Assembly: GCA_051388875.1 (NCBI GenBank)
Contig: JBMFFR010000002.1
Coordinates: 283,940 to 347,939 of the forward strand
Direction: 5' to 3'
Origin: Candidatus Brocadiia bacterium JP1
GTDB taxonomy: Bacteria; Planctomycetota; Brocadiia; Brocadiales; Bathyanammoxibiaceae
Length of the DNA stretch: 64,000 nt
Part shown: positions 36,177 through 60,786 of the stretch, one piece after another
Position numbering within the stretch: the stretch's first letter is position 1
How the letters are laid out: each line of letters starts with the position of its first letter
Notes under the pieces: generated by a model
What the model was told of the DNA's origin: nothing
Seen by the model: only the letters and a program-made list of their open reading frames with translations
Databases searched by the model: none
Program-made: the position numbers and the translations under genes

Positions 36177-36650
36177 ATGACGTCCCTAAAAAAGGTCTTT
36201 TTCCTGTTTGGTTTGTGTATCGTTACTATGGCTATGGCTAAGCTAACATTGGGCACCTATAGTCGTACCATTCTTATGACCGGGGAAGCACCGCCGATAC
36301 CAGTACCTGAGGAGAAATACAGCCCCAAAATGGTTACATTAAAGGTAGAAGAAAGGGTTACTTATGAGGTGTCAGTTCCTGAGGAAAAACTCCAGCAAGG
36401 GGAAGTAAAGCCACAAGACCTTGATCTGATAGAGGTGCAGGATAAGGAGAGCGTGAACTTCCATCAGATAGATTGCTTTTATTATCGTCCGGTAACCCAG
36501 AGACAGACACGTACCACAGATGCGCTTGTCTGTACCCGTTCCAGAGAGGGCACGGAGTATTGGTTCACCAACAAGACCCGTTTTGTGGAATGGGAGCCCT
36601 GGTCTGAATGGGTAGCTATTCCCAAGAAAGGGCTGGTTAAAAAGGAATAG
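36177..36650 (+). CDS. Hypothetical membrane-anchored/secreted protein
   Basis: The 157-aa product has an N-terminal hydrophobic anchor and AGGAGG upstream. Confidence 0.5.
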   Translation: MTSLKKVFFLFGLCIVTMAMAKLTLGTYSRTILMTGEAPPIPVPEEKYSPKMVTLKVEERVTYEVSVPEEKLQQGEVKPQDLDLIEVQDKESVNFHQIDCFYYRPVTQRQTRTTDALVCTRSREGTEYWFTNKTRFVEWEPWSEWVAIPKKGLVKKE

Positions 36651-36875: not shown

Positions 36876-38135
36876 TTAAGACTGGACTCCCATCCGAGAT
36901 GGCCGTGTTTTACTTTGTCTGCTAATCGGGTCTTTGATGGCCGAGTAATAATTTTTTAATAACATATACTGGTCAAAAAACCCTCTCGCCGAAGTACCCA
37001 GCGGGTGTTTAAAGTAGATGGCAAGCTGGGGCTGTATGCCATGCTCACCCCTACGAAGGGCAAATTCCAATAGCCTGACCAAATCCAGAATCAATGGGGC
37101 AGCCAGTATGGAATCCCTTCCTAACCAGTTTATTTTCATACTCATAGGCATACCGAGCCATCCAGAGAAATCTATACTCTCCCACGCCTCTTTGTTATCA
37201 CCCCTGGGGGCATAGTAATGGATGTCCACAATATGGGGGAAATGGTTATAGCCCAGTATAGGCTCCAGTACCCCTAATTTATCCTCCATCTTGGTCTGCC
37301 TGTGTTCCGGGAGTGCAAGTACCCTGCCATCGTTGTTTCCAAGTATGTTGGTGCTGTACCATCCATCCAGATGCAGATTCCTTATTTTAAACATCTGGGC
37401 TATTACAGTCTTGATAAGGGTCTGGCCGGTGTTACCGTCTCTACCTGCCAGAGGAACCCTCTTTTCTTCGGCCAGTTGCAAGAGGGCGGGCACCTTTAAA
37501 GTTACATTTGGCGTAAAATCCGCAAAGGGACAACCAGTTTCTATCGCAGCAAAGGCATATAACATGGCTGAGCTTATGGATTGGTCATTCTCCCTTAGCG
37601 CCTTCTTAAAACTGTCAATGTCTTTATGGAGTTCCTTTGTTTTAATATGTTTTAAAGGGGAACCCAGAAACACCATCACAGCCTTATCCAGATTATTGTT
37701 TTTCTTGAAAGAGAGTATATCTTGTTTAATGGCAGAAAGCCCTTCCTCCAGCGAAGAGGCTGTGCGGACGTTGTTACCCTTTCTAGCCGAATCTACATCG
37801 TGTGTGGTTACGGTGGCCCTCCAGGGGTGTATTGCTTCTAGTTCGGACCGCAAGCCCTCTACAAGCCATGGCTCCAACACCTTATTGGTGAGGGCAGCCC
37901 TGTAAGCATCCTGTCCATTGACGTCCCAACCGCCGAAGATGAATTGGTCTAGTTGGGAGAGGTTTAGGTGCGAGAAAGACTCAGTCTCAGTTAACATTCC
38001 AAAAAAATTGCTGCTCAGCCCCTTCTTTAGGGCTAGGGAGCCGGCTACCGTTGTGTTTGCCGTGGCCCCATTGAGTCCCACCAACAAAACGCCTATCTTT
38101 TCCTTCTTCATTACCTCATGATTACTCATTATCAT
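36876..38135 (-). CDS. ino1: myo-Inositol-1-phosphate (inositol-3-phosphate) synthase
   Basis: It has an N-terminal Rossmann segment (IGVLLVGLNGATA). The C-terminal half matches the MIPS pattern (GRDGNTGQTLIKT...NILGNNDG...DIHYYAPRGDNKEAWE...RDSILAAPLILDLVRL). I place the start at 38135, where AAGGAGG lies 8 nt upstream. Confidence 0.75.
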   Translation of the reverse strand: MIMSNHEVMKKEKIGVLLVGLNGATANTTVAGSLALKKGLSSNFFGMLTETESFSHLNLSQLDQFIFGGWDVNGQDAYRAALTNKVLEPWLVEGLRSELEAIHPWRATVTTHDVDSARKGNNVRTASSLEEGLSAIKQDILSFKKNNNLDKAVMVFLGSPLKHIKTKELHKDIDSFKKALRENDQSISSAMLYAFAAIETGCPFADFTPNVTLKVPALLQLAEEKRVPLAGRDGNTGQTLIKTVIAQMFKIRNLHLDGWYSTNILGNNDGRVLALPEHRQTKMEDKLGVLEPILGYNHFPHIVDIHYYAPRGDNKEAWESIDFSGWLGMPMSMKINWLGRDSILAAPLILDLVRLLEFALRRGEHGIQPQLAIYFKHPLGTSARGFFDQYMLLKNYYSAIKDPISRQSKTRPSRMGVQS

Positions 38136-38239
38136 TAAATTAACCTCCTTGTGATTGCTGAATTTAATCCTACAATACCTCTGAAAATTTTGCATAATGT
38201 CCTTCTAAACTGCTAAAGGCGGTGAAGAATCTCTGCTGT

Positions 38240-38374
38240 ACCATCAGATTCTTCGCTTCGCTCAGAATGACAATTTTTCTTAACACCCTGTCGTCTCCCA
38301 ACGCCACAGTACCATCAGATTCTCCGCTTCCCCTTCCCCTTTGGCTCAGGGCTTCGGCTCGCTCAGAATGACAA
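38240..38374. repeat. Two copies of the family D dispersed repeat (..GATTCTTCGCTTC...GCTCAGAATGACAA)
   Basis: The copies lie at 38240-38273 and 38311-38374, with a third at 49943-49989. The 86-aa ORF 38170-38430 is composed of these repeats. Confidence 0.8.
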
Positions 38375-38438
38375 TAGGTGTTAGAACCACTTTGGCAGGG
38401 GTCTCCTGCAAAAACAAATTCACCTTTCACTTCTTAGT

Positions 38439-41042
38439 TTACTCCAGGCTATTCAACTGATGTAACTTCCTTGCCTCCTCCTGTATCCTTGTGAGCCTTC
38501 CCATAGTATGAGAGGTCCCCCACCACCAGCTTATATCCTGTTGTGCGTGGGCGGTGCCTTTGTACCCCTGTAAGTGATTCCAGAACCACATCTCCGTATA
38601 CTCCCTCTCTATGGGGCTGGGGTTACCATCAGCCTGGGTAAAAACACCGTACACCCCCAGGACGGGGCCTATAATCGGCAGGTGTCCGCTAGTTTCCCTG
38701 AATTGTTCGTAGAGTTGCGGTCCAAGTTTTTCCGGTCCTAACCTCTCTACCATCAAGTCCCAGAGTGGGTACGGGGGCCTTTCTTCCGGGGTGGGCTTAA
38801 CCACGTTATTGGCAAAAACTTCTTCCAGGAGGAGTTGCGCCCGGTCTACCCTCTGCCATGAGGCGAACATATATTGGTCGGTAGCATCAAACCACATACT
38901 TGAGAAGCGGTTACTATGGCACCTGGTGCATAGCTCCAGCCATAATTGCTTGCGCTTATTGTTTTCTGGGGAATAAATCTCCAGCTTCTTATCCATGGGT
39001 GGAATCTTAACCCCGTATGGGAAATCCTTAATCCTGGATTTAAATTCTACCTCTACCGGTGGGATAACCCCCATGCGCCATATACCCTTCGTTTCTACAT
39101 TCATCTCCCAGCGATTATCTCCTACATACATATGACAGTATTGACAGGTGGGGGAGAGATAATCCTTCCCAGGAACCACTTCAGAGAGTTTCTTTTCCCA
39201 ATCCCATTTCTCCCCGGTAGTATGGTAGAGTATGCCCCATTTGGACATCTCATAACTCTCCCAATCAGGGTGGTCGGGACCCATATGGCAGCCTGCACAT
39301 GCCTCTGGACGGCGGGCCTGCTCGGAGGAAAAGAGGTGGCGGGCATGGCAATCATCGCAGGAGGACATGTTCTGGTGGCACTGGTCGCACCCAACCATGG
39401 CGTGCCCTTCGCCCCTCCGGTAGTTTTCAACATACCAGGGGGTGGACACACTCCCCTCCCAGCTCTGGGTATGATTGGGCTTCCCGTAGTCCCTGCCTCT
39501 GGCGAACTCCTTGGCCTCCTTAGAATGGCAGATACCACAACTATTATCGGCAGTGGGCATGTACAGGTGCTCGTGGTCATGCCCGTGGCAGTAGGAGCAG
39601 TAGACACCGTCCGTGGTGCCAGGTGTCCACGAGTCTAGTTTCTTCCCTATAAGTTCTTCTATTTCCATGGTTTCCTGTGCCTGTTCAGGATTCCTTTTGG
39701 TGTTGGCGTGAGCGGATATTTTCCATTCTTCCACAAGCCCGGGGGTAGCCTCCTCGTGACACTCTATGCACTGCTCGTGGTCATACTTTTTTGAAAGCTC
39801 CTCGTAACGCTGACTGTCGGGTGGCGTATAATGTCTCGTCGGATTGAAATAGGTATAAAAGGGTATAGGTTTATAGGCATCGCCCCAGGGGCCATCGCCC
39901 TGTTTAAGACCAACAAATTTCTCGTACATCTTTTTAAGTGTGGCATCTGGATAGATTAGGGAAGTTGGTGGAACCCCGAGCGTAGGGGGAGATGTCTCAG
40001 AGGAGGAGGCCTGAGAGACCTTTTGACCATCTTGTTTCCCCGTTATTGACGAGGAAGGTGGAGATGCAGGCACTTCCTTTACTTGCTGTGCGGGTTGCGG
40101 TCCTGTTTGTGCTACCAATTTTTCCGCCTCTTCCACCATGAAGATTCCAAACATCCCGTTCATCATGTGTTCGTGGAAGTGGCAGTGAAATATCCAGTTA
40201 CCCGGCCCGACGTCCTTCCCAGCAATGAAGTCCAAGACGTAGGAGGTGAAGGGTACCAGTCCGATGTTATCAATGAGCTGTCCGCTGGCCCTATCTACCC
40301 AGCGGTGGCCATGGGTGTGAAAGGTGTGCACTTCCTCGGCGGAGTTTATTAGATGAAACCTCACTTTCTCTCCCACTCTCGCACGCCAGACAAGTCCTGG
40401 AAAGGCCGCACTATCTCCGTTCATAAACTCTTTGTCTCCGGACTTGTCGTTAAAGGTCTCGTACTCCTTTCCCTCTACAACGAAGGTGTGCATGAAGACC
40501 ACAAATTCTTTGTCCGGAGGGGTAGGATCTCCCTCCTTGGGTTCCACAATCAGGGCGCCCCATAACCCCCTGTAGAGGCCCTCTTGCCCGCCCCTTTCAA
40601 AGGCATGGGTATGGTAAAACCAGGTGCCGGGTGTGCCAGTGGTGTCCCATTCAAAGACCCTTGTGCCCCCTGGTTCAACTATACTCGTTGGATTGCCAGC
40701 AATATGGGCGCCGTCATTGGCTATATCATACTTTACCCCATGGGGATGGACAGAGGCGGGCACGGTGAGCTTGTTGGTGAAATTAATCCTGAGCTTTGTC
40801 CCTTCTCTAACCTTTAGGGTGGGGCCAGGTACGGTGGGCCTTTGCCCTTTGAGGCAGTAACCCCAGGCATCAAAGAATACCCCTGGCCTGAGCTCAAGGC
40901 TTACGGGCCTTGCCTCCATCTCCACTTCAACCACCCCATCCCTGCCGACAAGACAGGGGATTTCAGCGTGGGCGTCATTAAGTAAGACGGTGGAAAATGC
41001 TATTAATGCTAGCAGTAAATAAACTCTTAAGAGCCGGGGCAT
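38439..41042 (-). CDS. Exported fusion protein: two-domain multicopper oxidase + octahaem cytochrome c (HAO/ONR-like)
   Basis: The signal peptide is MPRLLRVYLLLALIAFSTVLLNDAHA. The MCO ligand motifs are HPHG, WFYHTH, HTFHTHGH and HCHFHEHMMNGM (an exact HCH-x3-H-x4-M). A P/S/Q-rich linker of about 50 aa follows. Then come eight CxxCH motifs (CIECH, CSYCH, CGICH, CDQCH, CDDCH, CAGCH, CQYCH, CTRCH). Confidence 0.9.
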   Translation of the reverse strand: MPRLLRVYLLLALIAFSTVLLNDAHAEIPCLVGRDGVVEVEMEARPVSLELRPGVFFDAWGYCLKGQRPTVPGPTLKVREGTKLRINFTNKLTVPASVHPHGVKYDIANDGAHIAGNPTSIVEPGGTRVFEWDTTGTPGTWFYHTHAFERGGQEGLYRGLWGALIVEPKEGDPTPPDKEFVVFMHTFVVEGKEYETFNDKSGDKEFMNGDSAAFPGLVWRARVGEKVRFHLINSAEEVHTFHTHGHRWVDRASGQLIDNIGLVPFTSYVLDFIAGKDVGPGNWIFHCHFHEHMMNGMFGIFMVEEAEKLVAQTGPQPAQQVKEVPASPPSSSITGKQDGQKVSQASSSETSPPTLGVPPTSLIYPDATLKKMYEKFVGLKQGDGPWGDAYKPIPFYTYFNPTRHYTPPDSQRYEELSKKYDHEQCIECHEEATPGLVEEWKISAHANTKRNPEQAQETMEIEELIGKKLDSWTPGTTDGVYCSYCHGHDHEHLYMPTADNSCGICHSKEAKEFARGRDYGKPNHTQSWEGSVSTPWYVENYRRGEGHAMVGCDQCHQNMSSCDDCHARHLFSSEQARRPEACAGCHMGPDHPDWESYEMSKWGILYHTTGEKWDWEKKLSEVVPGKDYLSPTCQYCHMYVGDNRWEMNVETKGIWRMGVIPPVEVEFKSRIKDFPYGVKIPPMDKKLEIYSPENNKRKQLWLELCTRCHSNRFSSMWFDATDQYMFASWQRVDRAQLLLEEVFANNVVKPTPEERPPYPLWDLMVERLGPEKLGPQLYEQFRETSGHLPIIGPVLGVYGVFTQADGNPSPIEREYTEMWFWNHLQGYKGTAHAQQDISWWWGTSHTMGRLTRIQEEARKLHQLNSLE

Positions 41043-41045
41043 GTT

Positions 41046-42014
41046 CTATTCAACGGTGCAAATGGCCTGTGGGCATTTGATTCTAAGTACCGAGCTACCG
41101 ACCACCCTGAAGCGGTGGTTCAGGTTCTCGGGTCCCCAGTACTCTACATGGAAATTAGCACCAACGGCCAGGTCAAGGTTATGTCTGCCCATTGATACAA
41201 CGAGCGCCACATCTTTTTTGAAAAGGTAACTCTGGAATACCCCTCCCTTTACTAGCTCCTTTATTCCATCTATTTCTAATCTCCCCGTCCGCTCGTAAAC
41301 CTTGTGGAGCAGGGCATAGAGCTTTGGGCTGACCACAAGCGCAAATGGCCCATAAAAACCCTGGCTGGTAAGTTTTTCGGTAGCGGCCACTACATCCTGA
41401 AAACCGTTGCCAATCGTGTTCCAATCACTTAGTTTTACGGTGTTTCTGCCTTCCACATTCAAAAGCCCAGCCATGCCCATATCTGGTAAGCCGTTAAATA
41501 TGAGGTCATCTTCCCTGCTGGCGGAGGCAATGGCAGCCCCAATCGCAGTGCTTATATCCAGGGGTGTTTCGCACTTCTTGCTGGACTCAATATCGCGGTA
41601 GTATAGCCAGAAATCCTTATAGATAAGGGGTATGTGGGTAATATCCCTTTTCAAGGTGTGTATTGAAGCGTTGCCTTCGCCAAGCATGTCAATGCTTGCC
41701 TTGCTGGGCACTGCGTAGGTGTCTAGCGGCACACACTGTACACCAGTCCCCAACGGGCCGTAGACCTCAATAAACTTCCTGCCGACAAGGTGTCTCTCTA
41801 CTGTCTCATGGACTGCGCGCTGTACCTTTTCCCAATCTTCATGTCCAAGACAGACCTCAGAGGTAATTTTGGCGCACCCAGACCCGCCACTCTCAAAAGA
41901 GACGGCGGCTTCCTGTCCATTTGCAAAAGAAACCGAAGTCCCTTGAAAGGAGTAAGACAATGCTACTAGAATGAAAAGCACTGTTAGGGTTTGGGGTTTT
42001 GTTAAGGGCATCAT
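41046..42014 (-). CDS. Family 1 encapsulin (linocin M18-like, HK97-fold) shell protein with an N-terminal Sec-type signal peptide
   Basis: Residues ~55-322 follow the encapsulin pattern over their whole length (EDWEKVQRAVHETVERHLVGRKFIEVYGPLG; REDDLIFNG; GPFALVVSP; ALVVSMGRHNLDLAVGANFHVEY; RIKCPQAICTVE). Residues 1-~33 are MMPLTKPQ, then TLTVLFILVALSYSF, then ..SFA. AGGAGG lies 7 nt upstream. No in-frame ATG/GTG/TTG lies between this start and the shell core. Confidence 0.85.
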   Translation of the reverse strand: MMPLTKPQTLTVLFILVALSYSFQGTSVSFANGQEAAVSFESGGSGCAKITSEVCLGHEDWEKVQRAVHETVERHLVGRKFIEVYGPLGTGVQCVPLDTYAVPSKASIDMLGEGNASIHTLKRDITHIPLIYKDFWLYYRDIESSKKCETPLDISTAIGAAIASASREDDLIFNGLPDMGMAGLLNVEGRNTVKLSDWNTIGNGFQDVVAATEKLTSQGFYGPFALVVSPKLYALLHKVYERTGRLEIDGIKELVKGGVFQSYLFKKDVALVVSMGRHNLDLAVGANFHVEYWGPENLNHRFRVVGSSVLRIKCPQAICTVE

Positions 42015-42299
42015 GGCCTCTCCTCCTGTTTATTTAAATAATAATTTTCTGTATTATTGTTTACTAAAGAATTAAACCATAACGCGTAGTAAAAGTCCAA
42101 CAAAAGGGGCTTACAGGGTTTAAATATTTTCTCTGGTGGCTGTGGGAGTCTATTCTTATGCAAGGGCGATCGGGACACCTAGTCTTTAGGGATTTCTTTC
42201 CATTAAAGAAGGCTTGTCCCACGGGAAACCCGGTGGAGGACCCAGACTCAGGCAAAAGTAGAAAGTATATTTCAAAATTCATAATTGCAATTGAGACTC

Positions 42300-42327
42300 A
42301 TTATAAATGAAACCGCGATTTTGTCAA
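42300..42327 (-). promoter_or_regulatory. Sigma70-like promoter of the encapsulin operon
   Basis: On the minus strand: TTGACA (42327-42322), a 16-nt spacer and TATAAT (42305-42300). This implies a leader of about 280 nt. Confidence 0.4.
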
Positions 42328-45492: not shown

Positions 45493-46056
45493 CGGCATTA
45501 CGAAAGCATTCTGACTAAGGTAGCAGTATTTCAGTTCTTTTTCAAATAGTTTATTTTATTAGTACTTACAGAGTACATGTTTGTTTTTATTTTCAGCATT
45601 TTACAGCCTTTTTTAGAGTTTTATTCTACAATCCTTCTACAGTGGAAAAACATAGGTGTTTCACCCTTACCCCCTGGGTGAGTAGAGGGGGGGTAGACGG
45701 GTTAAAAATAGCCAAGCTAGAGGTACATTTTTATCCCTGGAAAGCGATATTATTTTCTGGTGCAAGCTAAGGGCCAGGATAGGGGATTTTATATTAATAC
45801 CCTAACAACCACCCTTAAAAAGACCGATATTGCGGTACAGGGAAAGTGCAGGAATCCCCTCTGTACTAATCAGTTCATCCCTCAAAGGGTAGAGCAGAGG
45901 TGTGCTTTAAGGATATTTTAGGCTGACCTGTTCCCTTCCCTGTCGTAGTGCCTTGTCCACAACACTGTCCCGTTAGAGGCATTATACGCCCTCACTGTGA
46001 AGGCATAGCCACCTGCGGTGGTTCCGGTATAACCAGACGCAAAGACCCTTGTCCCG

Positions 46057-47307
46057 TCAGGGCTTATAAAAAGCGTGGCAGGTCATGCATGACCCGGTGC
46101 CGGCAACATACGCACGCACTGTGAAGGCATTGCCACCTGCGGTAGTTTTGGTATAACCAGCCGCAAAGACCCTGCTCCCATCAGGGCTTACCGCCACTGC
46201 CATTGCTCCATCATGAAGGTTTCCTTCCCTGTCGTAGTGCTGTGTCCACAACACTGCCCCGTTAGAGGCATCATATGCACGCACTGTGAAGGCATTGCCA
46301 CCTGCGGTGGTTTGGGTATAACCAGCCGCAAAGACCCTGCTCCCATCAGGGCTTACTGCCACTGCCTTTGCCTCATCCCCCAGGGACCCTTGCCTGTCGT
46401 AGTGCTGTGTCCACAACACTGCCCCGTTAGAGGCACCATACGCCCTCACTGTGAAGGCATCGCCACCTGCGGTGGTTTGGGTATAACCAGCCGCAAAGAC
46501 CCTGCTCCCATCAGGGCTTACTGCCACTGCTTCTGCCACATCATTCTTATTTCCTTCCCTGTCGTAGTGCCTTCCCCATAACAGTGTCCCGTTAGAGGCA
46601 CCATACGCCCTCACTGTGAAGGCATCGCCACCTGCGGTGGTTTGGGTAAAACCAGCCGCAAAGACCCTGCTCCCATCAGGGCTTACTGCCACTGCCATTG
46701 CTCTATCATAAAGGGTTCCTTCCCTGTTGTAGTGCTGTGTCCACAACACTGTCCCGTTAGAGGCATTATATGCACGCACTGTGAAGGCACCACCTCCTTC
46801 GGCAGTTTGGGTCTGACCTACGGCAAAGACCCTGGTGCCGTCAGGGCTTACTGCCACTGCATGCGCATAATCATCCATGTTTCCTTCCCTGTTGTAGTGC
46901 TGTGTCCACAACACTGCCCCGTTAGAGGCATTATATGCACGCACTGTGAAGGCATCGCCACCTGCGCTGGTTTCGGTACTACCAGCCGCAAAGACCTTTG
47001 TCCCATCAGGGCTTACTGCCACTGCATACGCATAATCATACTTGTTTCCTTCCCTGTCGTAGTGCCTTGTCCACAACACCGTCCCGCTAGAGGCATTATA
47101 CGCCCTCACTGTGAAGGCACCACCTCCTTCGGCAGTTTGGGTCTGACCTACGGCAAAGACCCTGGTGCCGTCAGGGCTTACTGCCACTGCATGCGCATAA
47201 TCATTCTTGTTTCCATCCCTGTCATAGAAGTCTTCCCACCCGAAGACAGGGAGGACGGGAAAGTAGAGGAATAAGATTACCGAGATAATTAGTCTGTCCC
47301 ACTTCAT
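46057..47307 (-). CDS. Secreted beta-propeller repeat protein (SBBP-like), 7 tandem 55-aa repeats
   Basis: A signal/anchor sequence is followed by 7 units of A.AVAVSPDG.RVFA.G.T.T..GG.AFTVRAY.AS.G..LW..HY.REG. The 165-bp DNA repeats are highly similar. Confidence 0.8.
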   Translation of the reverse strand: MKWDRLIISVILFLYFPVLPVFGWEDFYDRDGNKNDYAHAVAVSPDGTRVFAVGQTQTAEGGGAFTVRAYNASSGTVLWTRHYDREGNKYDYAYAVAVSPDGTKVFAAGSTETSAGGDAFTVRAYNASNGAVLWTQHYNREGNMDDYAHAVAVSPDGTRVFAVGQTQTAEGGGAFTVRAYNASNGTVLWTQHYNREGTLYDRAMAVAVSPDGSRVFAAGFTQTTAGGDAFTVRAYGASNGTLLWGRHYDREGNKNDVAEAVAVSPDGSRVFAAGYTQTTAGGDAFTVRAYGASNGAVLWTQHYDRQGSLGDEAKAVAVSPDGSRVFAAGYTQTTAGGNAFTVRAYDASNGAVLWTQHYDREGNLHDGAMAVAVSPDGSRVFAAGYTKTTAGGNAFTVRAYVAGTGSCMTCHAFYKP

Positions 47308-53596: not shown

Positions 53597-56500
53597 ATGA
53601 AAAACATGGCTAATACCCCTCCTATCCGCGAAGGTCAGATACTTGAGGGAAGTCTTTTCCCTGAGCCCATGAGGGTAGAGACTGTTCGCCCAAATGGTCC
53701 GGATTCATGGGAAGTCGGCCTCGTCGGTTTAGAGACAGAACGCTTCCGAAAGGTTCCCCTTACGCTTGACCAGATAAAAACCCTCGTAATTCAGGAAATA
53801 AGCCAATCTTACAAAGGTGATGGAGATACTCTCAGGCTTGGTCTCCAGGCATATATGCTTGGAATTGCCTACGAGTTTGACCCCTACTTTGGACTTTCTA
53901 TATCTCGCGTAGACCCCCTGCCCCATCAGCTTGAGGCCGTCTATGACTACCTTCTTAAACTTGCAAGAATTCGTTTCCTGCTTGCAGATGACGCAGGTGC
54001 AGGCAAGACCATTATGGCCGGTCTAGTACTCCGTGAACTTAAACTCCGTGGCCTGGCCGAACGTATCCTGGTTGTTTGCCCCGCCAATCTAACCTTCCAG
54101 TGGCAACGTGAGTTAAAAGAAAAGTTTGATGAAAAATTCATCGTCCTTAAAGGTGATGACATACGAGACCAGTACGGTATCAACCAGTGGATGGAACAAA
54201 AACAAATTATAACCTCTCTGGACCTGGCAAAGAGGGACAAGATTCTACCCGGCCTTGGCCAATGTCATTGGCATTTAGTTGTTGTGGATGAGGCCCACAG
54301 GATGTCCTGGACGCCCCCCTCCCGGAAGACAGAACGCTACGCCCTGGGTGAACTCTTAAGAGAATCCTCAGACCATTTTTTACTCTTAACGGCCACACCC
54401 CACAAAGGAGACCCTGCAAATTTCAGCCTTTTCCTGCAATTATTAGACAAGGATGCTTATGCTAACGTACGCTCCATTCAAGAGGCAATGAACCGTCGTT
54501 ATGCCCCCTTTTACCTCAGACGCACAAAGGAGGCAATGGTATATTTCCCTGAGCGGCAGCCAGACGGTACCTGGGCGGCAACAAAAATATTCAAAAAACG
54601 TATCCCCCGCACAATTAATTTTTCAATAGATGACGCAGAGTTTAATTTATACAGGGATGTTACACGCTTCGTAAAACAGCAAAGTACGAAGGCCGCCGCA
54701 ATGGGGGACGACCCGCAAGCAAGGGCGGTAGGGTTCCTGATGTCCCTCTTTCAGCGCCGCCTTGCCTCCAGCACGTATGCATTGAGACATTCATTAGAAA
54801 ACCGTGCTGATCGCCTCGAAAATAGCTTACGTCAGGCCCGAGAGTTGGCCCAAGTGGCACCGCCCGAACTGCCCACCCCGGAAGAACTGGAAGAAATGGA
54901 AGAGGCAGAACGGGAACGGCTGGAAGAATTCATTGAAGCCGTTACAATTACCAGAGACCCACAACAGATACAGGAAGAAATTGAGACCCTCAATGAACTG
55001 GCAAAGCAGGCCAAAGAGGTAGAAAACTCATGTGTTGAGGAGAAACTCAGCCGACTCAAGCAACTTCTACAAGAAGAAGGCTTTTTTGACCACCCAAATA
55101 AGAGGCTACTGATTTTCACTGAATACAGAGATACACTCAGCTACTTAATAAAAAACCTTAAAGACTGGGGATTCAGAGTGGGATACATCCACGGCGGAAT
55201 GAAACCCGGTTCCCGTGATGAGCCAGGCTCTCGTATCTATTCAGAGCAACAGTTCAAAGATGGTGCATTTCAGGTGCTGGTGGCGACCGATGCGGCGGGG
55301 GAGGGTATTAACCTGCAGTGTTGCCATGTCCTTTTCAATTATGACATCCCATGGAACCCAAATAGATTAGAACAAAGGATGGGACGTATCCACCGCTACG
55401 GGCAAAACAAGGACTGCCTGATATTTAACTTCGTTGCCGCAAATACCATTGAGGGAAAAGTGTTACAAAAACTCCTTGAAAGACTTCAGGAGATACGGGA
55501 CGCCCTGGACGACGATTCGGTCTTTAACGTAGTCGGAGAAATCCTACCCGCCGTCCAAATGGAAACGGTACTACGTGACTACTACGCAGGTAAACTAGGA
55601 GATGCAGACCTTGAGGACCGTATTCTGCGTAATGTAAAAGAGGAAAGGTTCAGGGCAATTTGTCAAAACGCCCTTGAAGGTCTGGCTGCTAAGAAGTTAA
55701 ATCTTGAAATGCTAGTGGAACGCCGTGCAAAGGCACAGGAACGACGTGTAGTCCCAGAGACAATCGCCCGCTTCATGCGAGAATCTGCCCCCCTGGTTCC
55801 TTTCACACTGAAGCCTGTCCCATCCCTGCCCCACACCTTTGACCCTTCACCTACACCACAAATCCTCCGGCGCTACGAAAAAAGTCCAAACTGGAAGCTC
55901 CCAGCCCTTGCAACCAGATACCCGAGGCTTTCTGCTGACAGAGAAACCGCAGAAAACAACAACCTTGAATGGGTAACGCCCGGCCACGAACTCTTTGAGG
56001 CCCTGAGACAACATGCCCATGCAACTGCCCAGGAAGCCTTCACGCAGGGGGCTTGTTTTTATTCTCTGGAACATACCAAACCCTCCAAGCTTGATTTCTA
56101 CAAGGCACGCGTGGTGGATGGACTCGGGCATATTATCCATGAACAACTCTTCGCCATAGAGGTCTCTGAAGATGATGAGCCAAAACTCCGAGAACCTGGG
56201 TTCCTGGGGAACCTTCAACCTGCCAGAGCACCAGAGGTTTTACCTCAGGTTGTTAGTCTACCAGAACCCCGCTCCTGGTTACATGAACAGGCCCTGCAAC
56301 CCTTCCTTGAACAGGCCAGGAAGGAACGCCTGGAGGAAGTGGAGCGTATCAGCAGGCACATTGAACTCTCCCTTACTGAACTCATAGCCCGTGAGGATGC
56401 CCTTATCGGTAGATTTGCAGAGGAGGCCGAAAGAGGGGTGGAAGGTGCGGCAGGCCGTCTGAAGCAGGCAGAAGACCGCCAGGCAGAGTTACTGGATAGA

Positions 56501-57040
56501 CGAGAACGCAGGAGACAGGAACTGGAACGTCAGAAGGCACTCTCACTACAGGCCGTAGAAAGAATCACAAGCGTCCTCATCCTGCCCCACCCTGAACGTG
56601 ATAAGCCAGAGGTACGCCGCCTGAAACCAGACGCAGAGGTTGAGGCAATAGCCATGCAAGTTGCTATTGAATGCGAGAGGTCGCAAGGCCGTGCAGTAGC
56701 AGATGTCCACGAGAAAAACCTGGGATACGACCTCACCAGCCTTGATACAAGAAGCGGTAAACTCCGCCTTATTGAGGTAAAGGGAATTGGTGAGGCCACA
56801 GGAACAGTCCTGCTTACACCCAACGAGAAACGCGTGGCTGAAGACCGCAGGGACTGCTACTGGCTATACGTGGTAACCCACTGCAATACTACACCGAAGC
56901 TACAGGAACCCATCAAAGACCCTGCAAGGCTTAGCTGGCATGAGGTTAAAAAGATAGACCATTACTACATGTCAGTTGATGCATTGACACAGCCAATGGA
57001 GGTGCGGGAAGACTCACCGCCATACGAAGGCAAAACATGA
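53597..57040 (+). CDS. SNF2-family helicase with a C-terminal DUF3883 (PD-(D/E)xK nuclease-like) domain
   Basis: The helicase motifs are LLADDAGAGKT (I), VVVDEAHRM (II), LLLTATPH (III) and QRMGRIHRYGQ (VI). A long coiled-coil region follows. The C-terminus NLGYDL...LRLIEVKG...YWLYVV is typical of DUF3883. Confidence 0.88.
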   Translation: MKNMANTPPIREGQILEGSLFPEPMRVETVRPNGPDSWEVGLVGLETERFRKVPLTLDQIKTLVIQEISQSYKGDGDTLRLGLQAYMLGIAYEFDPYFGLSISRVDPLPHQLEAVYDYLLKLARIRFLLADDAGAGKTIMAGLVLRELKLRGLAERILVVCPANLTFQWQRELKEKFDEKFIVLKGDDIRDQYGINQWMEQKQIITSLDLAKRDKILPGLGQCHWHLVVVDEAHRMSWTPPSRKTERYALGELLRESSDHFLLLTATPHKGDPANFSLFLQLLDKDAYANVRSIQEAMNRRYAPFYLRRTKEAMVYFPERQPDGTWAATKIFKKRIPRTINFSIDDAEFNLYRDVTRFVKQQSTKAAAMGDDPQARAVGFLMSLFQRRLASSTYALRHSLENRADRLENSLRQARELAQVAPPELPTPEELEEMEEAERERLEEFIEAVTITRDPQQIQEEIETLNELAKQAKEVENSCVEEKLSRLKQLLQEEGFFDHPNKRLLIFTEYRDTLSYLIKNLKDWGFRVGYIHGGMKPGSRDEPGSRIYSEQQFKDGAFQVLVATDAAGEGINLQCCHVLFNYDIPWNPNRLEQRMGRIHRYGQNKDCLIFNFVAANTIEGKVLQKLLERLQEIRDALDDDSVFNVVGEILPAVQMETVLRDYYAGKLGDADLEDRILRNVKEERFRAICQNALEGLAAKKLNLEMLVERRAKAQERRVVPETIARFMRESAPLVPFTLKPVPSLPHTFDPSPTPQILRRYEKSPNWKLPALATRYPRLSADRETAENNNLEWVTPGHELFEALRQHAHATAQEAFTQGACFYSLEHTKPSKLDFYKARVVDGLGHIIHEQLFAIEVSEDDEPKLREPGFLGNLQPARAPEVLPQVVSLPEPRSWLHEQALQPFLEQARKERLEEVERISRHIELSLTELIAREDALIGRFAEEAERGVEGAAGRLKQAEDRQAELLDRRERRRQELERQKALSLQAVERITSVLILPHPERDKPEVRRLKPDAEVEAIAMQVAIECERSQGRAVADVHEKNLGYDLTSLDTRSGKLRLIEVKGIGEATGTVLLTPNEKRVAEDRRDCYWLYVVTHCNTTPKLQEPIKDPARLSWHEVKKIDHYYMSVDALTQPMEVREDSPPYEGKT

Positions 57041-58959
57041 TACCCAAAGAATGCAAACGCCTGGCGGAGGTGGATTTCCCGATTGCGGTGGTGAGCAAAC
57101 ATTCGGCACGGGAGAAGTCTATCCGCCATGGACATCCATCTACACTCCATTTGTGGTGGGCAAGGAGACCCCTCGCCGCCTGCAGGGCCATTCTCCTGGG
57201 ACTACTACTGCCCGACCCCGTAGACCCCCATTGCCCTGAGGATTTCAAGACAAAGGCAAGGGAGTTGCTCTCACAGATAGGAGGCACTGGCACCACAGAC
57301 TATGATTTACAGCGGGCACTACTGAAATTCATTGGTGACTTCGCCAACTGGGACAATTCGTCTCATGCAACATATTTAAAGGTATCAAGAGGGCTGGTGA
57401 AGGCCGCTCATGGTGAAGAACCGCCACTGGTGGTTGACCCCTTCGCCGGGGGAGGCTCCGTACCCCTTGAGGCCCTGAGGTTAGGTTGCGAAGCCTTTGC
57501 AAGCGACATTAATCCTGTGGCCTGTCTAATCCTGAAGGTAATGCTGGAGGATATTCCACGTCATGGCCCAAAACTGGCAGAGGAACTCAGGCGTGTGGGT
57601 GCAGAGATCAAAAGAGAGGCAGAAAAGGAACTCGCAGAGTTTTATCCAAGAGACCCTGATGGTTCAACCCCGATAGCCTATTTATGGGCAAGGACGGTCA
57701 GGTGCGAGTCGCCTAATTGCGGTGCAGAAATTCCACTGGTTAGGTCTTTCTGGCTGTGTAAAAAGGCCAATAGGAAGAGGGCATTACGCCCCGTTGTCTC
57801 CCCCCTCACCCCAAACCCTCTCCCTGCGGGAGAGGGAAGGGTGATGGAAATCCCTTCTGTTGACTTTGAGATATTTGAGCCAGAATCTGATAAGGACGTA
57901 CCCAATGGTACAGTAAACCGTGCAAAGGCTACCTGCCTCTGCTGTAGTACCGTCCTTCCACCAGACCGTGTCCGTGCCCAGTTAAGGGAACAAAGGGGAG
58001 GGGCAGATGTGGTCTTTGAACCCTCCCCCTCCGGGGGAGGGAAGGGTGAGGGAGAACCCCCCCTCCCCAAACGCATCAGCGGTGCAAGGCTCCTGGCCGT
58101 GGTTACTCTAAGACCCGGTGAACAGGGCAGACACTACCGCCTGCCTACCGAACAAGATTACCTGGCAGTCTGGAAGGCACAACGCAAGCTCAGGGAAATC
58201 CTGGACGAGTGGGAGCGGGAAGGCAGAAAGGGCCTCTGCCCCGTACCAGATGAGTCAAGCCCGGAAGGTGGAGGGTCCGGTGCTGGGCGAGCTTTCTCTG
58301 TTCGCAAGTACGGCATGAATACCTTTGGGGATCTCTTCATGGCGAGGCAGAAGGTGGGGATGGTGATATTGATAAAGTACACAAAAAAACAGATAAATTC
58401 AGAAGTCACACCTATTCTTGGTCTATTGCTTGGGAAGTCGGCTGATGGTAATAATTCGCTTTCACGTTGGATGGCAGGTTACGAAAATCCGGTAAACCTG
58501 TTTTCTCGTCAAGCGATGCCTATTGTCTGGGATTTTTGTGAATCTACTCCAACTAGTGAAGCTCGTGGAGTCTTTTTAGCCGGCATTTATAGTGCTCAAG
58601 AAGTTATTGATACAAATCATTTCATTGATTCCGGTCAGGTTCAAAAAGTAAATGCTTCTCAAATACTGTTACCTAATGATGCTTGCAATGTTTGGTTTAC
58701 CGATCCACCTTACTACGATGCTATACCTTATTCAGATTTATCTGACTTCTTCTTTGTATGGTTAAAACGAGCTTTGCCAGGTCATCCTCTCCTATGTGAT
58801 CCATTCGATTTGACAAACCCTTTAACGCCCAAGGTGCAAGAAATTGTTCAGGATGAGACTAACAGTTTGATGGGAGGCCAAAAGACAGACAGTTCTTTGA
58901 AGACAGGATGGCCTGTGCCTTTGCTGAAGGACGGAGGATATTACGAGATGATGGGGTAG
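57037..58959 (+). CDS. DUF1156-domain DNA methyltransferase, N-terminal ~2/3 (gene interrupted by a frameshift)
   Basis: DUF1156 N-terminus: DFPIAVVSKHSAREKSIRHGHPSTLHLWWARRPLAACRA. SAM motif I: VVDPFAGGGS. Zn-ribbon cysteines: CESPNC...CLCC. Catalytic motif IV: FTDPPYYDAIPYSDLSDFF. It overlaps the helicase stop by 4 nt. Confidence 0.85.
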   Translation: MIPKECKRLAEVDFPIAVVSKHSAREKSIRHGHPSTLHLWWARRPLAACRAILLGLLLPDPVDPHCPEDFKTKARELLSQIGGTGTTDYDLQRALLKFIGDFANWDNSSHATYLKVSRGLVKAAHGEEPPLVVDPFAGGGSVPLEALRLGCEAFASDINPVACLILKVMLEDIPRHGPKLAEELRRVGAEIKREAEKELAEFYPRDPDGSTPIAYLWARTVRCESPNCGAEIPLVRSFWLCKKANRKRALRPVVSPLTPNPLPAGEGRVMEIPSVDFEIFEPESDKDVPNGTVNRAKATCLCCSTVLPPDRVRAQLREQRGGADVVFEPSPSGGGKGEGEPPLPKRISGARLLAVVTLRPGEQGRHYRLPTEQDYLAVWKAQRKLREILDEWEREGRKGLCPVPDESSPEGGGSGAGRAFSVRKYGMNTFGDLFMARQKVGMVILIKYTKKQINSEVTPILGLLLGKSADGNNSLSRWMAGYENPVNLFSRQAMPIVWDFCESTPTSEARGVFLAGIYSAQEVIDTNHFIDSGQVQKVNASQILLPNDACNVWFTDPPYYDAIPYSDLSDFFFVWLKRALPGHPLLCDPFDLTNPLTPKVQEIVQDETNSLMGGQKTDSSLKTGWPVPLLKDGGYYEMMG

Positions 58960-60131
58960 GTTGTGTGGTATTTGCCCACAAGACCACTGAAGGCTGGGAG
59001 GCCCTTCTAACTGGCATGATTCGGGGTGGCTGGACAATTACTGGTTCCTGGCCCATTCTTACCGAGATGGGAAGTCGCCTCCGTGCCCGTGAATCCGCGG
59101 CCCTTGCTACCAGCGTCCACCTTATCTGCCGCCCGAGGCCTGACAATGCCCCGGTGGGCGATTGGGGAGAGAAACTTCATGAACTTCCCAATCGCATAGG
59201 GGATTGGATGGAGAGGCTCTCTGGTGAGGGCATAAGGGGTGCCGATTTGGTCTTCGCCTGTATTGGCCCTGCGCTGGAATTATTCAGCAAATATTCTAAA
59301 GTAGAAACTGCGGAAGGGCGTACGGTGGAACTGCCCGAATTCCTTGAGAAGGTGTGGGAGGTGGTGGGGCGAACTGCCCTTGGTCAAATACTTGGCACTG
59401 CAGAGGCACGGGCACGCAATAGCGCCGCCGGCGCCCTTGAAGAGGACGCACGCCTCACCGCCCTATTCCTCTGGACACTTCAGTCCACAGAGGTAGGACA
59501 GGCAGGATGCCTGTCACCAAATAACAGCGAGATTGACGAAGGGGAAGAGGCTGAAGAGGAACCAGATGAGGAAGAGGCCCAAAAAAGTAAGGGGAAGAAG
59601 GGCCAGAGCTTGATATTTGATGTGGTACGACGTTTCGCCCAACCCCTTGGTATTCATCTTCAGATATGGGAGGGCCGAATAATTGAGACAGAGAAGGGTA
59701 TTGTGCGTCTGCTATCTGTGAAAGAGAGGGCCAGGCAATTGTTTGGAGAAGACGGGGCCTCTGCCATTGCAGACCAGATAGAACACAGTACGCCGGATCC
59801 CCTACAACAGCTACTCTCCTTTGCTAAAAAAGGGGTTGATGACGTTCCAAGAATCCTGGGCAAGGGCAAGGCCAGGGGTAGAAAGACCGGGACAGGTCTA
59901 GAAAAGGACTTGCAAACAAGGCAAGAAGCTACTACCTTAGACAGGGTGCATGCGGCAATGTTATTACAGGCGAGCGGACGGGCAAACGCACTGAAGGCAC
60001 TCTTAAAGGCAGAGCAACAACGAGGCCCTGATTTTCTAAGGCTCGCCAACGCCCTCTCTGCCCTGTATCCAAAAGATAGTGAGGAAAAACGCCTATTGGA
60101 TGCTATGCTACTGGCCGTGCCTCGTACATGA
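58908..60131 (+). CDS. DUF1156-type methyltransferase, C-terminal ~1/3 (continuation in the -1 frame)
   Basis: This frame is open from 58863 and encodes ..GRPKDRQFFEDRMACAFAEGRRILRDDGVGCVVFAHKTTEGWEALLTGMIRGGWTITGSWPILTE. That is the region that normally follows the DPPY motif in these enzymes. Confidence 0.8.
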   Translation: MACAFAEGRRILRDDGVGCVVFAHKTTEGWEALLTGMIRGGWTITGSWPILTEMGSRLRARESAALATSVHLICRPRPDNAPVGDWGEKLHELPNRIGDWMERLSGEGIRGADLVFACIGPALELFSKYSKVETAEGRTVELPEFLEKVWEVVGRTALGQILGTAEARARNSAAGALEEDARLTALFLWTLQSTEVGQAGCLSPNNSEIDEGEEAEEEPDEEEAQKSKGKKGQSLIFDVVRRFAQPLGIHLQIWEGRIIETEKGIVRLLSVKERARQLFGEDGASAIADQIEHSTPDPLQQLLSFAKKGVDDVPRILGKGKARGRKTGTGLEKDLQTRQEATTLDRVHAAMLLQASGRANALKALLKAEQQRGPDFLRLANALSALYPKDSEEKRLLDAMLLAVPRT

Positions 60132-60192
60132 TTTCATACTAGTAAAGATTTAATGACACACGGAACCAGTTAAGGGAGAAAAAGGGGAAAGC

Positions 60193-60474: not shown

Positions 60475-60491
60475 AAACTGGAGGGGATCAG

Positions 60492-60719: not shown

Positions 60720-60786
60720 AAATGCAAAATGAATCCTGACACACCTGCCTGTCAGTGGAATATAACTTAATAAGAGGTAAATAGAT

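Follow-up and report, generated by a model that had tools for sequence, protein, structure and literature searches.

A haem-free, signal-peptide encapsulin gene beside a copper/octahaem enzyme gene in a member of the Brocadiales: a further example of a published system

This locus raises the question whether an encapsulin gene with its own signal peptide, followed closely by the gene of an exported copper/haem enzyme, encodes a compartment outside the cytoplasm, and whether such a pair is new. An earlier note on the same DNA had answered yes to the first part as a possibility and had treated the exported haem-free form as a novelty. We followed up both points by computational analysis of the whole 64,000-nt stretch, hereafter the window.

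Layout of the locus and its host

Both genes lie on the minus strand. The shell ORF (41046-42014, 322 aa) is followed after 3 nt by the cargo ORF (38439-41042, 867 aa), and direct reading confirmed this layout, the gap and the strong Shine-Dalgarno sequence described in the earlier note. The locus is a real two-gene unit, composed of a signal-peptide encapsulin gene and the gene of an exported copper/octahaem enzyme. Since the genes are co-directional and only 3 nt apart, they are probably co-transcribed and translationally coupled. The features are as follows.

42300..42327, minus strand: promoter-like TTGACA-16 nt-TATAAT, ~285 nt upstream of the shell ATG; a consensus match only (12/12 to sigma-70)
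42022..42027, minus strand: Shine-Dalgarno AGGAGG, 7 nt before the shell ATG at 42014, by direct sequence reading
41922..42014, minus strand: predicted Sec-type signal peptide, shell residues 1-31; n-region MMPLTKPQ, h-region TLTVLFILVALSYSF, predicted cleavage SFA/NG
41850..41921, minus strand: Gly/Ser/Ala linker, then canonical N-arm (Cys47, Cys55), shell residues 32-55; no CxxCH, at the position of the dihaem domain in cEnc relatives
41046..41849, minus strand: HK97-fold family-1 encapsulin core, shell residues 56-322 and stop, from profiles, EncA identity, AF2 and Foldseek
40965..41042, minus strand: predicted Sec-type signal peptide, cargo residues 1-26; MPRLLRVYLLLALIAFSTVLLNDAHA then EIP, predicted cleavage AHA/EI
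40113..40940, minus strand: two-domain multicopper oxidase (MCO) of small-laccase type, cargo residues ~35-310, by Pfam Cu-oxidase_3 and Cu-oxidase_2
39987..40112, minus strand: Pro/Ser/Gln-rich interdomain linker, cargo residues 311-352, of varying length among homologues
38445..39986, minus strand: octahaem HAO-family module, cargo residues 353-866; nearest solved relative 6H5L (a K. stuttgartiensis HAO homologue)
36876..38195, minus strand: myo-inositol-1-phosphate synthase (MIPS), by Pfam, on the cargo strand and 243 nt downstream of the cargo

The implied 5' UTR of the shell gene gave no Rfam match and no unusual fold. MIPS also adjoins the system in loci L005, L007, L017, L019, L020 and L031. 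The best named matches of the LeuRS encoded in the window were Planctomycetota and Brocadiales (66-82% identity), and those of LeuRS, shell and cargo together were Planctomycetota, Brocadiales or Hypogeohydataceae. Judged by these matches, the host is a member of the Brocadiales (class Brocadiia, Planctomycetota). Hydrazine-synthase genes and other cytochrome c genes were absent from the 64-kb window, a fragment too small to judge an anammoxosome.

The shell protein and its signal peptide

Profile searches upheld the assignment of the shell to the family-1 encapsulins, with matches to Pfam Linocin_M18 (PF04454; 6e-62, 209.5 bits, cutoff 24.3) and NCBIfam encap_f1 (NF041155; 242.9 bits, cutoff 100) and a profile-matched core at residues 56-320. 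The nearest solved shell is M. xanthus EncA (PDB 4PT2, 7S20, 8VJO), with 46-47% identity over 268 residues (E 5e-77). An AF2 model from only 28 sequences was unusable (pLDDT 37); 95 sequences were used instead and gave a mean pLDDT of 86, with most of the core above 90. Foldseek placed EncA chains 8VJO (cargo-loaded) and 7S20 (T=3) at the top, with target-normalised TM of 0.92-0.94 and rmsd of 1.3-1.7 Å. Profiles and model together identify the shell as a family-1 encapsulin with a predicted HK97 fold, as the earlier note had anticipated. Unlike the window shell, EncA is cytoplasmic, has no signal peptide and takes ferritin-like cargo via C-terminal targeting peptides.

No CxxCH occurs in the shell (cysteines at 47, 55, 94, 148, 314 and 319), again as noted before. 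The cEnc subtype was rejected on this ground and because the alignment has a gap where cEnc carries its dihaem cytochrome c domain. By its sequence, the shell is of the haem-free type that Tracey 2019 described. The N-terminal extension had been put at ~55 aa; its division into signal peptide and linker was borne out and its length was not. Shell residue 55 pairs with EncA residue 11, so the real surplus over EncA is ~45 aa, made up of the 31-aa signal peptide and a ~14-aa Gly/Ser/Ala linker. Residues ~48-55 form an ordinary encapsulin N-arm, and residues 23-47 were modelled with pLDDT <50.

Signal peptides were called by an in-house heuristic together with conservation across the family, and the cleavage sites are predicted. 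In shell and cargo alike, the N-terminus is positively charged at its start and leads through a hydrophobic core (Kyte-Doolittle 2.5-3.2) to a small-x-small cleavage site, and neither has a twin arginine, which supports the Sec signals proposed for the two proteins. The xYA/EIP junction is conserved across 20 cargo homologues. Among full-length shells of the clade, haem-bearing or haem-free, 48/50 carry a signal peptide; none of 65 other family-1 encapsulins checked has one, nor do any of the 145 cluster representatives outside the clade that ranked in the best 150 of 1.84 billion. The shell signal peptide is, as these predictions indicate, a trait of the whole clade, independent of the fused cytochrome.

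Two other accounts of this N-terminus have to be weighed. If it were a start-codon artefact, the shell would be an ordinary cytoplasmic encapsulin, and the database entries of some relatives do begin at the shell core (e.g. P0012 and P0018, 275-281 aa). In the window, however, in-frame ATG/GTG/TTG occur upstream of codon 88 at codons 2, 12 and 19 alone, which fall within the hydrophobic segment; the span from 20 to 87 holds none, in line with the claim that no alternative start precedes the shell core. Together with the strong Shine-Dalgarno sequence at ATG1, the in-frame stop 6 codons upstream and the conservation of the segment at protein level across the clade, this makes an artefact extremely improbable. 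An uncleaved signal anchor would leave the shell membrane-tethered, with no free closed shells. The shell does have a single hydrophobic stretch whose cleavage was predicted by heuristic, but its hydrophobic core is short (~15 residues), and at a fixed distance after it the 50 clade shells conserve small residues at the predicted cleavage site (A/G at -1 in 49/50, V/A/S/I at -3 in 47/50). Moreover, when the segment was left out on expression, the shells of K. stuttgartiensis and S. rubra formed free particles; these are the only relatives for which icosahedral self-assembly has been shown by experiment. An anchor seems very unlikely to us. We retain a cleaved signal peptide, most simply explained by a need for the shell to leave the cytoplasm along with its haem-c cargo. 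The locus is still best read as encoding an extracytoplasmic or organelle-lumen compartment, and assembly outside the cytoplasm is a reasonable idea that has already been published.

The copper/octahaem enzyme

In the ligand columns of the alignment, the cargo has the full set of 12 T1 and trinuclear-site copper ligands (H99xH101, H144xH146, H239xxH242xH244, H286-C287-H288xxxH292xxxxM297), that is, all four copper-ligand motifs of a two-domain MCO (small laccase, type B). Eight CxxCH follow at 425, 482, 502, 552, 562, 582, 633 and 705, so that the four-copper MCO and eight haem sites reported previously are complete. The copper module matched two-domain laccases in the PDB with E ~1e-36. The Streptomyces two-domain small laccases (3TAS, 3CG8; E ~1e-35 to 1e-36) share its two cupredoxin domains and four-motif ligand set, but they are free-standing O2-using oxidases, whereas the window module belongs to an anaerobe and forms one protein with a multihaem reductase. 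A NirK identity, as implied by the label 'NIR', was rejected, with TIGR02376 at 71.5 bits against a cutoff of 296.3 and laccases as the nearest structures. The B. pituitae preprint (bioRxiv 10.64898/2026.07.28.741245) likewise reports low homology of the orthologous copper domain to copper nitrite reductases.

The HAO module matched 6H5L with E 1e-151 over ~510 residues. Trp841 of the cargo aligns with the cross-linking Tyr467 of N. europaea HAO, in an alignment that is weak there on its own; the surrounding segment is that of 6H5L apart from Ile837 (Val in 6H5L), and both proteins have eight haems and ...AQQD(I/V)SWWWG... in place of the cross-link tyrosine. These residues assign the module to the reductive, cross-link-free HAO branch. 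We provisionally equate 6H5L with the published structure of Kustc0458, a nitrite-reducing HAOr. The B. pituitae preprint (10.64898/2026.07.28.741245) names 6H5L only as K. stuttgartiensis HAO, and Ferousi et al. 2021 (PMC8042395), in whose text the accession was not found, describe a Kustc0458 structure without the cross-link and nitrite reductase activity of this HAO. Kustc0458 is stand-alone with a separate dihaem partner, Kustc0457, and unlike the window cargo has no copper-domain fusion and no encapsulin link.

A canonical targeting peptide or GSL-type motif was not found in the cargo C-terminus (...ARKLHQLNSLE), as previously stated; in the alignment with 6H5L this end falls on the last helix of the HAO fold. 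The cargo of published anammox encapsulin systems also lacks a C-terminal targeting peptide.

Relatives, destination and proposed working

The pairing of Enc and NIR-HAO is the published anammox encapsulin system (Giessen & Silver, bioRxiv 085266). Comparison of neighbourhoods, as the earlier note had suggested, showed the pairing kept in 21 genome loci (L001-L004, L006-L021, L031) from Brocadia, Jettenia, Kuenenia, Loosdrechtia, Scalindua and groundwater lineages. Adjacency was strict in every Brocadiales family sampled, with inverted order in Scalindua, and the homologue search found the MCO-HAO fusion only in the Enc-bearing Brocadiales group. Haem-free shells were basal in a rough tree of the clade, and in two genomes a haem-free shell gene stands in tandem with a dihaem one.

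RIFCSPHIGHO2_02_FULL_50_42 (a Planctomycetes bacterium, Ca. Avalokitesvara rifleensis lineage) likewise has a haem-free family-1 shell with an 867-aa NiR/HAO directly downstream (Tracey et al. 2019, PMC6934571), MIPS next door and a signal peptide on the shell (P0027; L007). Shell and cargo are each only 66-67% identical to those of the window, its shell is longer (336-339 aa, with a longer linker, vs 322 aa), and its MIPS lies upstream of the shell rather than downstream of the cargo. Among the passages of Tracey et al. 2019 retrieved by text search, none takes up a signal peptide on the haem-free shells. In K. stuttgartiensis (kuste2479 is the NIR-HAO gene; bioRxiv 085266) pair and order are as in the window, with signal peptides on both proteins, no cargo targeting peptide and an HAO without the cross-link tyrosine. 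Its cEnc differs by a ~50-aa dihaem cytochrome c domain between signal peptide and linker, and the Kuenenia copper domain by degenerate trinuclear-site ligands (HSY, HCQ), all of which are intact in the window cargo. BpMHAO of Ca. Brocadia pituitae is the cargo orthologue (67% identity, tblastn to the B. pituitae locus L016), with identical copper-ligand motifs offset by one residue, a signal peptide and Trp for Tyr at the cross-link position; it has 840 aa vs 867, the interdomain linker being longer in the window. A cEnc gene lies directly upstream of it in the genome, and the term 'encapsulin' is absent from the main text of the preprint (bioRxiv 10.64898/2026.07.28.741245).

Two statements of the earlier note failed against the literature, namely that no such system had been characterised biochemically and that the exported haem-free form was new. 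K. stuttgartiensis cEnc and Enc have been expressed and imaged, with haem binding shown and the NIR domain co-purified (bioRxiv 085266), and the S. rubra shell has been imaged. For the B. pituitae orthologue, assays of the MCO and HAO domains have shown T1/T2/T3 copper and hydroxylamine reductase activity, and the Tyr-to-Trp replacement was reported as well (10.64898/2026.07.28.741245). Haem-free shells, the 867-aa NiR/HAO and adjacent MIPS were described by Tracey et al. 2019 (PMC6934571). Signal peptides and anammoxosome assembly have been proposed since 2017-2021, and the idea of Sec export with subsequent assembly within the anammoxosome appears in Andreas & Giessen 2021, a 2024 review and Tracey et al. 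2026. The architecture is largely characterised in description, while experiments stop short of the haem-free form. The locus is a further example of an already published system; new here, from sequence comparison, are the clade-wide signal peptide, the basal position of haem-free forms and the tandem genes.

We consider it likely that the locus encodes an anammox-type encapsulin system of the haem-free shell form, in a Brocadiales member, and propose the following working. The probably coupled genes would yield two products with Sec-type signal peptides and signal-peptidase-I sites conserved at sequence level, and both would be exported in unfolded form; the membrane crossed would be that of the anammoxosome if K. 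stuttgartiensis is a guide. Once across, each cargo chain would be fitted with eight c-type haems and four coppers, and the chains probably trimerise, as those of small laccases and of HAOs both do. The mature ~32-kDa shell protein would form an icosahedral HK97-fold shell, probably of T=3 class, with its short N-terminal tails pointing inward. Cargo capture, if any, might run through contacts between copper domain and shell interior, as co-purification in K. stuttgartiensis hints. As a cross-link-free reductive HAO, the cargo would likely have hydroxylamine, nitrite or NO as its substrate. Against this picture stand the lack of an obvious path for electrons through a haem-free shell to a reductase inside, and the finding that the K. 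stuttgartiensis shell by itself conferred no protection against NO in E. coli.

The genes might also be functionally linked while MCO-HAO is not the cargo, the shell being empty, iron-mineralising or filled with another protein and the enzyme free in the compartment. Consistent with this are the missing targeting peptide, the iron-rich ~25-nm anammoxosome particles proposed as encapsulins, with ferritin-like proteins suggested as possible cargo, and the closest solved shells, which are iron-storage encapsulins (M. xanthus EncA, Q. thermotolerans). Encapsulated full-length cargo has never been demonstrated: full-length NIR-HAO was insoluble in E. coli, and co-purification was confined to its copper domain and was poorer when the cytochrome domain was missing (bioRxiv 085266). 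However, that co-purification did occur with and without the cytochrome domain, the 3-nt spacing suggests coupled expression, and adjacency holds in all sampled Brocadiales families even where the order is inverted, which makes a shell without MCO-HAO as its cargo rather unlikely. Similarly improbable is a destination in the periplasm or cell exterior instead of the anammoxosome lumen. Sec signals alone do not separate the two membranes, as the B. pituitae authors state (10.64898/2026.07.28.741245), export to the outside was raised by Tracey 2019 (PMC6934571), and the 64-kb window has no anammox marker gene; against this, encapsulin was detected in the K. stuttgartiensis anammoxosome proteome, and the anammoxosome is where the HAO paralogues of anammox bacteria are usually placed (10.64898/2026.07.28.741245).

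The anammox-type system with its MCO-HAO cargo remains our preferred reading, and a bolder extension of it is decidedly unlikely in our judgement. The haem-free signal-peptide shell would then be the ancestral form of the only known extracytoplasmic encapsulin lineage. Since a shell of this kind could not relay electrons through haems of its own, the MCO-HAO would need to run its whole redox cycle unaided: the T1 copper might, for example, oxidise Fe(II) or a different small reductant, the haem chain would carry the electrons on for the reduction of hydroxylamine, nitrite or NO, and Fe(III) would be left behind as a deposit within the shell. If true, Fe(III) deposition would fit the iron-storage nature of the nearest solved shells and would explain the iron-rich particles seen in anammoxosomes.

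The operon and its encapsulin shell

The locus comprises an encapsulin shell gene and a gene for a multicopper oxidase-HAO (MCO-HAO, or NIR-HAO) fusion, here called the cargo.

Features of the operon
41046-42014, minus strand: shell ORF, 322 aa, co-directional with the cargo ORF
38439-41042, minus strand: cargo ORF, 867 aa, three bases from the shell ORF
42300-42327, minus strand: promoter-like site TTGACA-16-TATAAT (sigma-70 type), a perfect consensus match about 285 nt 5' of the shell ATG

Both ORFs, their 3-nt spacing and the encapsulin profile matches bear out the two-gene arrangement described in an earlier note on this DNA. The shell scored 242.9 bits against the NCBIfam family-1 model encap_f1 (cutoff 100) and matched Pfam Linocin_M18 at 6e-62 from residue 56 onward; M. 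xanthus EncA aligned with it at 46-47% identity over 268 residues (E = 5e-77). An AlphaFold2 model from 28 close relatives (pLDDT 37) was discarded, and a 95-sequence alignment was used instead, giving a mean pLDDT of 86 with a confident core (223 residues at 90 or above). This model fitted the EncA structures 8VJO (cargo-loaded) and 7S20 (T=3) with target-normalised TM scores of 0.92-0.94 and rmsd of 1.3-1.7 Å, consistent with the HK97 fold expected by the earlier note, and fitted T=1 conformers more poorly (4.6-7 Å). This preference among conformers hints at a T=3 class for the modelled shell, in agreement with the 33-nm particles of K. stuttgartiensis (Giessen & Silver, bioRxiv 085266). CxxCH motifs are absent from the shell, as had been noticed before. 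Predicted masses of the mature shell and cargo are 31.9 and 95.9 kDa, cofactors excluded. The position of the sigma-70-like site implies a long leader, in which a regulatory RNA was rejected after an Rfam search without a match and an unremarkable fold z-score of -0.37.

An AGGAGG motif lies 7 nt 5' of the shell ATG, and the reading frame is closed by a stop six codons upstream. Other in-frame starts ahead of the shell core had been thought absent; up to codon 88 they do exist at codons 2, 12 and 19, but all fall within the hydrophobic stretch and none beyond it. These features together indicate that the N-terminal extension is not a start-codon artefact. Within the segment are a single lysine, a hydrophobic core 15 residues long (Kyte-Doolittle 3.2 over 10 residues) and a predicted SFA/NG cleavage site, but no twin arginine. 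Compared with EncA, the extra length is ~45 residues rather than the ~55 first estimated, made up of a 31-residue signal peptide and a Gly/Ser/Ala linker of ~14 residues. Both cysteines once assigned to a two-Cys linker are present, but they belong to residues ~48-55, which align with the ordinary encapsulin N-arm of EncA.

Signal peptides were scored by a heuristic test that requires a positive n-region, a core hydrophobicity of 2.0 or more and a small-x-small site. Of 50 full-length members of the Brocadiales/anammox encapsulin clade, 48 passed; of 65 other family-1 encapsulins, none did. Around the predicted cut in the clade, A or G occupies position -1 in 49/50, and V, A, S or I occupies position -3 in 47/50. 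An exhaustive HMMER search over 1.84 billion cluster representatives returned 686 matches, and N-termini were scored in the best 150 of these 686. Among the 148 new representatives in that set, the only signal-peptide N-terminus was on a fragment of the same clade; the remaining two, P0025 and P0044, were clade members scored positive before. The haem-free signal-peptide form was thus not found in other phyla, where the earlier note had suggested looking: neither the 65 homologues nor the 145 non-clade representatives among the best 150 of 686 included a signal-peptide encapsulin outside Brocadiales. At the search depth reached, encapsulins with a predicted signal peptide look restricted to the Brocadiales/anammox lineage. 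Both the heuristic test and the conservation across the clade support the signal peptide proposed earlier for the shell, and the predicted peptide characterises the entire clade, its haem-free members as well. It has been rationalised as allowing the fused cytochrome to mature (Andreas & Giessen 2021); since haem-free members also carry it, it cannot serve only that maturation, and the eight c-type haems of the cargo would be a sufficient reason for exporting the shell as well. Long histidine-rich N-terminal extensions without a signal peptide were seen in three distant family-1 encapsulins (P0296, P0307 and P0375), where they could be metal-binding luminal tails.

The cargo protein and its copper site

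The cargo begins with a predicted Sec-type signal peptide (...AHA/EIP), contains a complete set of laccase-type ligands (H99xH101, H144xH146, H239xxH242xH244 and H286-C287-H288xxxH292xxxxM297) and carries eight CxxCH motifs, so that the ligand motifs and the motif count agree with the exported four-copper, eight-haem protein first proposed. Its copper part matched two-domain small laccases (E ~1e-36), and the protein scored 71.5 bits against the NirK model, below the cutoff of 296; the 'NIR' label is therefore a misnomer. Residues 353-866 matched the K. stuttgartiensis HAO homologue PDB 6H5L (E = 1e-151). Trp841 stands at the position of Tyr467, the haem-cross-linking residue of N. europaea HAO, and the segment around it equals that of 6H5L except for Ile/Val at residue 837. 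We assume that 6H5L shows the nitrite-reducing Kustc0458 complex, and the dihaem partner of this closest HAO is then presumably Kustc0457. The identification is our own, because 6H5L is given only as K. stuttgartiensis HAO in the B. pituitae preprint (bioRxiv 10.64898/2026.07.28.741245) and the accession is absent from the text of Ferousi et al. (PMC8042395). HAOs free of the cross-link act as reductases, and the substrates reduced by Kustc0458 are nitrite (to NO), NO and hydroxylamine (PMC8042395). In the B. pituitae cargo orthologue, studied as separated domains, T1, T2 and T3 copper were found, with weak laccase and ferroxidase activity, and the HAO domain had hydroxylamine reductase activity (bioRxiv 10.64898/2026.07.28.741245).

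The fusion was found in the Brocadiales/anammox group only, with 60-77% identity across full-length matches. Its copper site is intact in the window and in Brocadia; in Kuenenia it has degenerated in part, and in Scalindua the T1 cysteine has been lost. Degenerate sites were seen in P0141, a K. stuttgartiensis-type cargo with a haem-carrying shell, whose N-terminus matches the kuste2479 signal peptide published by Giessen & Silver (bioRxiv 085266), and in the K. hertensis cargo, which has a haem-free shell; the Scalindua shell is also haem-free. The idea that shell haems go with an intact copper site was rejected, because intact and degenerate sites both occur with haem-free shells.

Related loci and the two shell types

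Among 5.8 billion clustered proteins, a search found ~55 close shell homologues, and all named ones came from Brocadiales/anammox genomes (Brocadia, Kuenenia, Loosdrechtia, Scalindua, Ca. Avalokitesvara and Ca. Hypogeohydataceae). By length there are two groups: shells of 320-342 aa lack CxxCH, and those of 377-388 aa have two. In the alignment a common signal peptide is followed by either a short variable linker or a dihaem domain plus linker, and then by the conserved core; the linker of the window shell is the shortest seen so far. A neighbourhood scan with one genome for each GTDB species yielded 31 loci, and in 21 of them (Brocadia, Jettenia, Kuenenia, Loosdrechtia, Scalindua and groundwater MAGs) an MCO-HAO gene adjoins that of the shell, in reversed order in Scalindua; the comparison with anammox loci urged in the earlier note thus recovered the same pair. 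[quoted passage not shown] The nearest relative of both proteins is L001, a locus in a New Zealand groundwater MAG (70% identity for the shell and 77-78% for the cargo). The window LeuRS shows at most 85% identity to any database entry, its best named matches being Planctomycetota at 82%, Brocadiales at 69-72%, and Brocadia, Scalindua and Jettenia at ~65%, which points to an undescribed Brocadiales lineage as host. The 64-kb window contains no anammox marker genes.

In a neighbour-joining tree of the shell core, rooted on non-Brocadiales encapsulins and built without support values, haem-free Scalindua, Avalokitesvara and K. hertensis-like shells branch first; dihaem shells occur only in the Brocadia/Jettenia/Kuenenia crown, where both types are interleaved. 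This order would make the haem-free state ancestral, although with unsupported nodes it is only a pointer. In two loci, a haem-free shell gene with a signal peptide stands in tandem with a gene for a shell that has a dihaem cytochrome c domain (cEnc).

Tandem shell genes
L003, 6865-7839 and 8638-9777: NIR-HAO gene directly after
L005, 6539-7540 and 7820 to contig end: contig ends inside cEnc

The NIR-HAO gene of the L005 MAG lies on a separate contig (L030). L003, the sole locus with both genes complete, has ~68% identity between its haem-free and dihaem shells. Mixed two-component shells are conceivable in these lineages, and no description of the tandem arrangement was found in the literature cited here. 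In Ca. Brocadia carolinensis (L015, 3475-4605) the frame upstream of the shell gene is open and encodes two CxxCH motifs of a dihaem domain, with no ATG; the published 'no cytochrome domain' status is therefore probably a truncated gene call or a frameshift. In Ca. Scalindua rubra (L018, 694-1713) the upstream frame is also open, but it has neither an ATG nor a signal peptide. The cEnc dihaem domain had no detectable similarity to PDB chains of the Kustc0457 kind, so a relationship to them is not supported.

Other features in the window
36177-36650, plus strand: 157-aa ORF, N-terminal hydrophobic segment, no family match
38238-38390: direct-repeat element in the 243-nt cargo-MIPS spacer, two imperfect copies (37 nt at 78% and 22 nt at 95% identity)
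46057-47307, minus strand: 416-aa beta-propeller repeat ORF, one CxxCH
53597-63543, plus strand: Hma-type (helicase/methylase/ATPase) anti-phage defence cluster, HmaA 9e-171, HmaC 4e-90

The 157-aa ORF is 74% identical to an ORF adjoining the cargo gene in L001 (3870-4334); no homologue was found in the other scanned loci, and it was rejected as a system component because it is kept beside the cargo only there. An 86-aa ORF between cargo and MIPS (38170-38430) has no family match, reads through the direct repeat and is probably spurious. HmaB spans two overlapping ORFs (57037-58959 and 58908-60131), suggesting a frameshift. A further beta-propeller repeat unit just past the stop of its ORF (45924-46067, minus strand) may likewise reflect a frameshift or a truncated gene.

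Proposed export and encapsulation, and earlier work

Evidence at sequence level establishes the predicted fold and the sites for cofactor binding, a predicted signal peptide on each protein, two tightly coupled genes and a pairing that is conserved among relatives. On this basis, shell and cargo would both be exported by Sec, haem and copper would be inserted into the cargo on the far side of the membrane, the cargo would trimerise, and the shell would assemble in a T=3-like form with its N-termini facing inward, capturing the cargo without a targeting peptide. By our own estimate from known shell sizes, a T=3 shell should have room for a cargo trimer of ~300 kDa. Encapsulation itself is the weakest step, a full-length cargo inside the shell being putative, and a main rival reading takes the enzyme for a neighbour and not for an encapsulated cargo. 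As the earlier note had remarked, the cargo C-terminus bears no encapsulin targeting motif; it aligns with the terminal helix of the HAO fold. Particles were obtained from K. stuttgartiensis cEnc and also from an Enc lacking the cytochrome; c-type haem was bound by cEnc, and the copper domain co-purified with either shell, though to a lesser degree when the cytochrome was missing (bioRxiv 085266). The electron supply is a further weak point, because a haem-free shell would provide an enclosed cargo with no relay. A separate cytochrome c encoded near the operon in place of the shell haems was rejected, since the 64-kb window holds no other multi-CxxCH ORF or cytochrome c gene.

The other main rival concerns the destination, which could be the periplasm rather than the anammoxosome. 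A Sec-like signal peptide, unfolded translocation into the anammoxosome and assembly there have been proposed (Andreas & Giessen 2021; 2024 review), and Tracey et al. 2026 present the same export model, citing an anammoxosome proteome and iron-rich ~25-nm particles. The extracytoplasmic shell suggested in the earlier note is thus sound in substance and already in the literature. Giessen & Silver (bioRxiv 085266) described the cEnc and NIR-HAO operon in four anammox genomes and gave the signal peptides of both K. stuttgartiensis proteins in their Methods. The earlier note described such loci correctly in outline, but its statement that none had been characterised was wrong (bioRxiv 085266, 10.64898/2026.07.28.741245). 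Tracey 2019 (PMC6934571) reported shells that lack a cytochrome domain from Scalindua, from B. caroliniensis and from a planctomycete of the Rifle aquifer; this planctomycete has an 867-aa NiR/HAO and an adjoining myo-inositol-1-phosphate synthase, which is the architecture of the window. The haem-free form and the export idea are therefore both already known (PMC6934571; Andreas & Giessen 2021; 2024 review). What is added here is the clade-wide signal peptide, the basal haem-free forms, the tandem shells, the B. carolinensis frame and the variation of the copper site.

The window thus opens no new question; it is a new locus within a known kind of system, a further haem-free example from an undescribed Brocadiales lineage with the shortest linker seen so far and a fully intact copper site. 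No encapsulins other than those of anammox bacteria are thought to be exported and to assemble within another compartment, and this locus together with the family survey shows that shell export is independent of a fused cytochrome. The haem-free pair is thus a simpler construct for studying MCO-HAO encapsulation, loading without a targeting peptide and the electron route.
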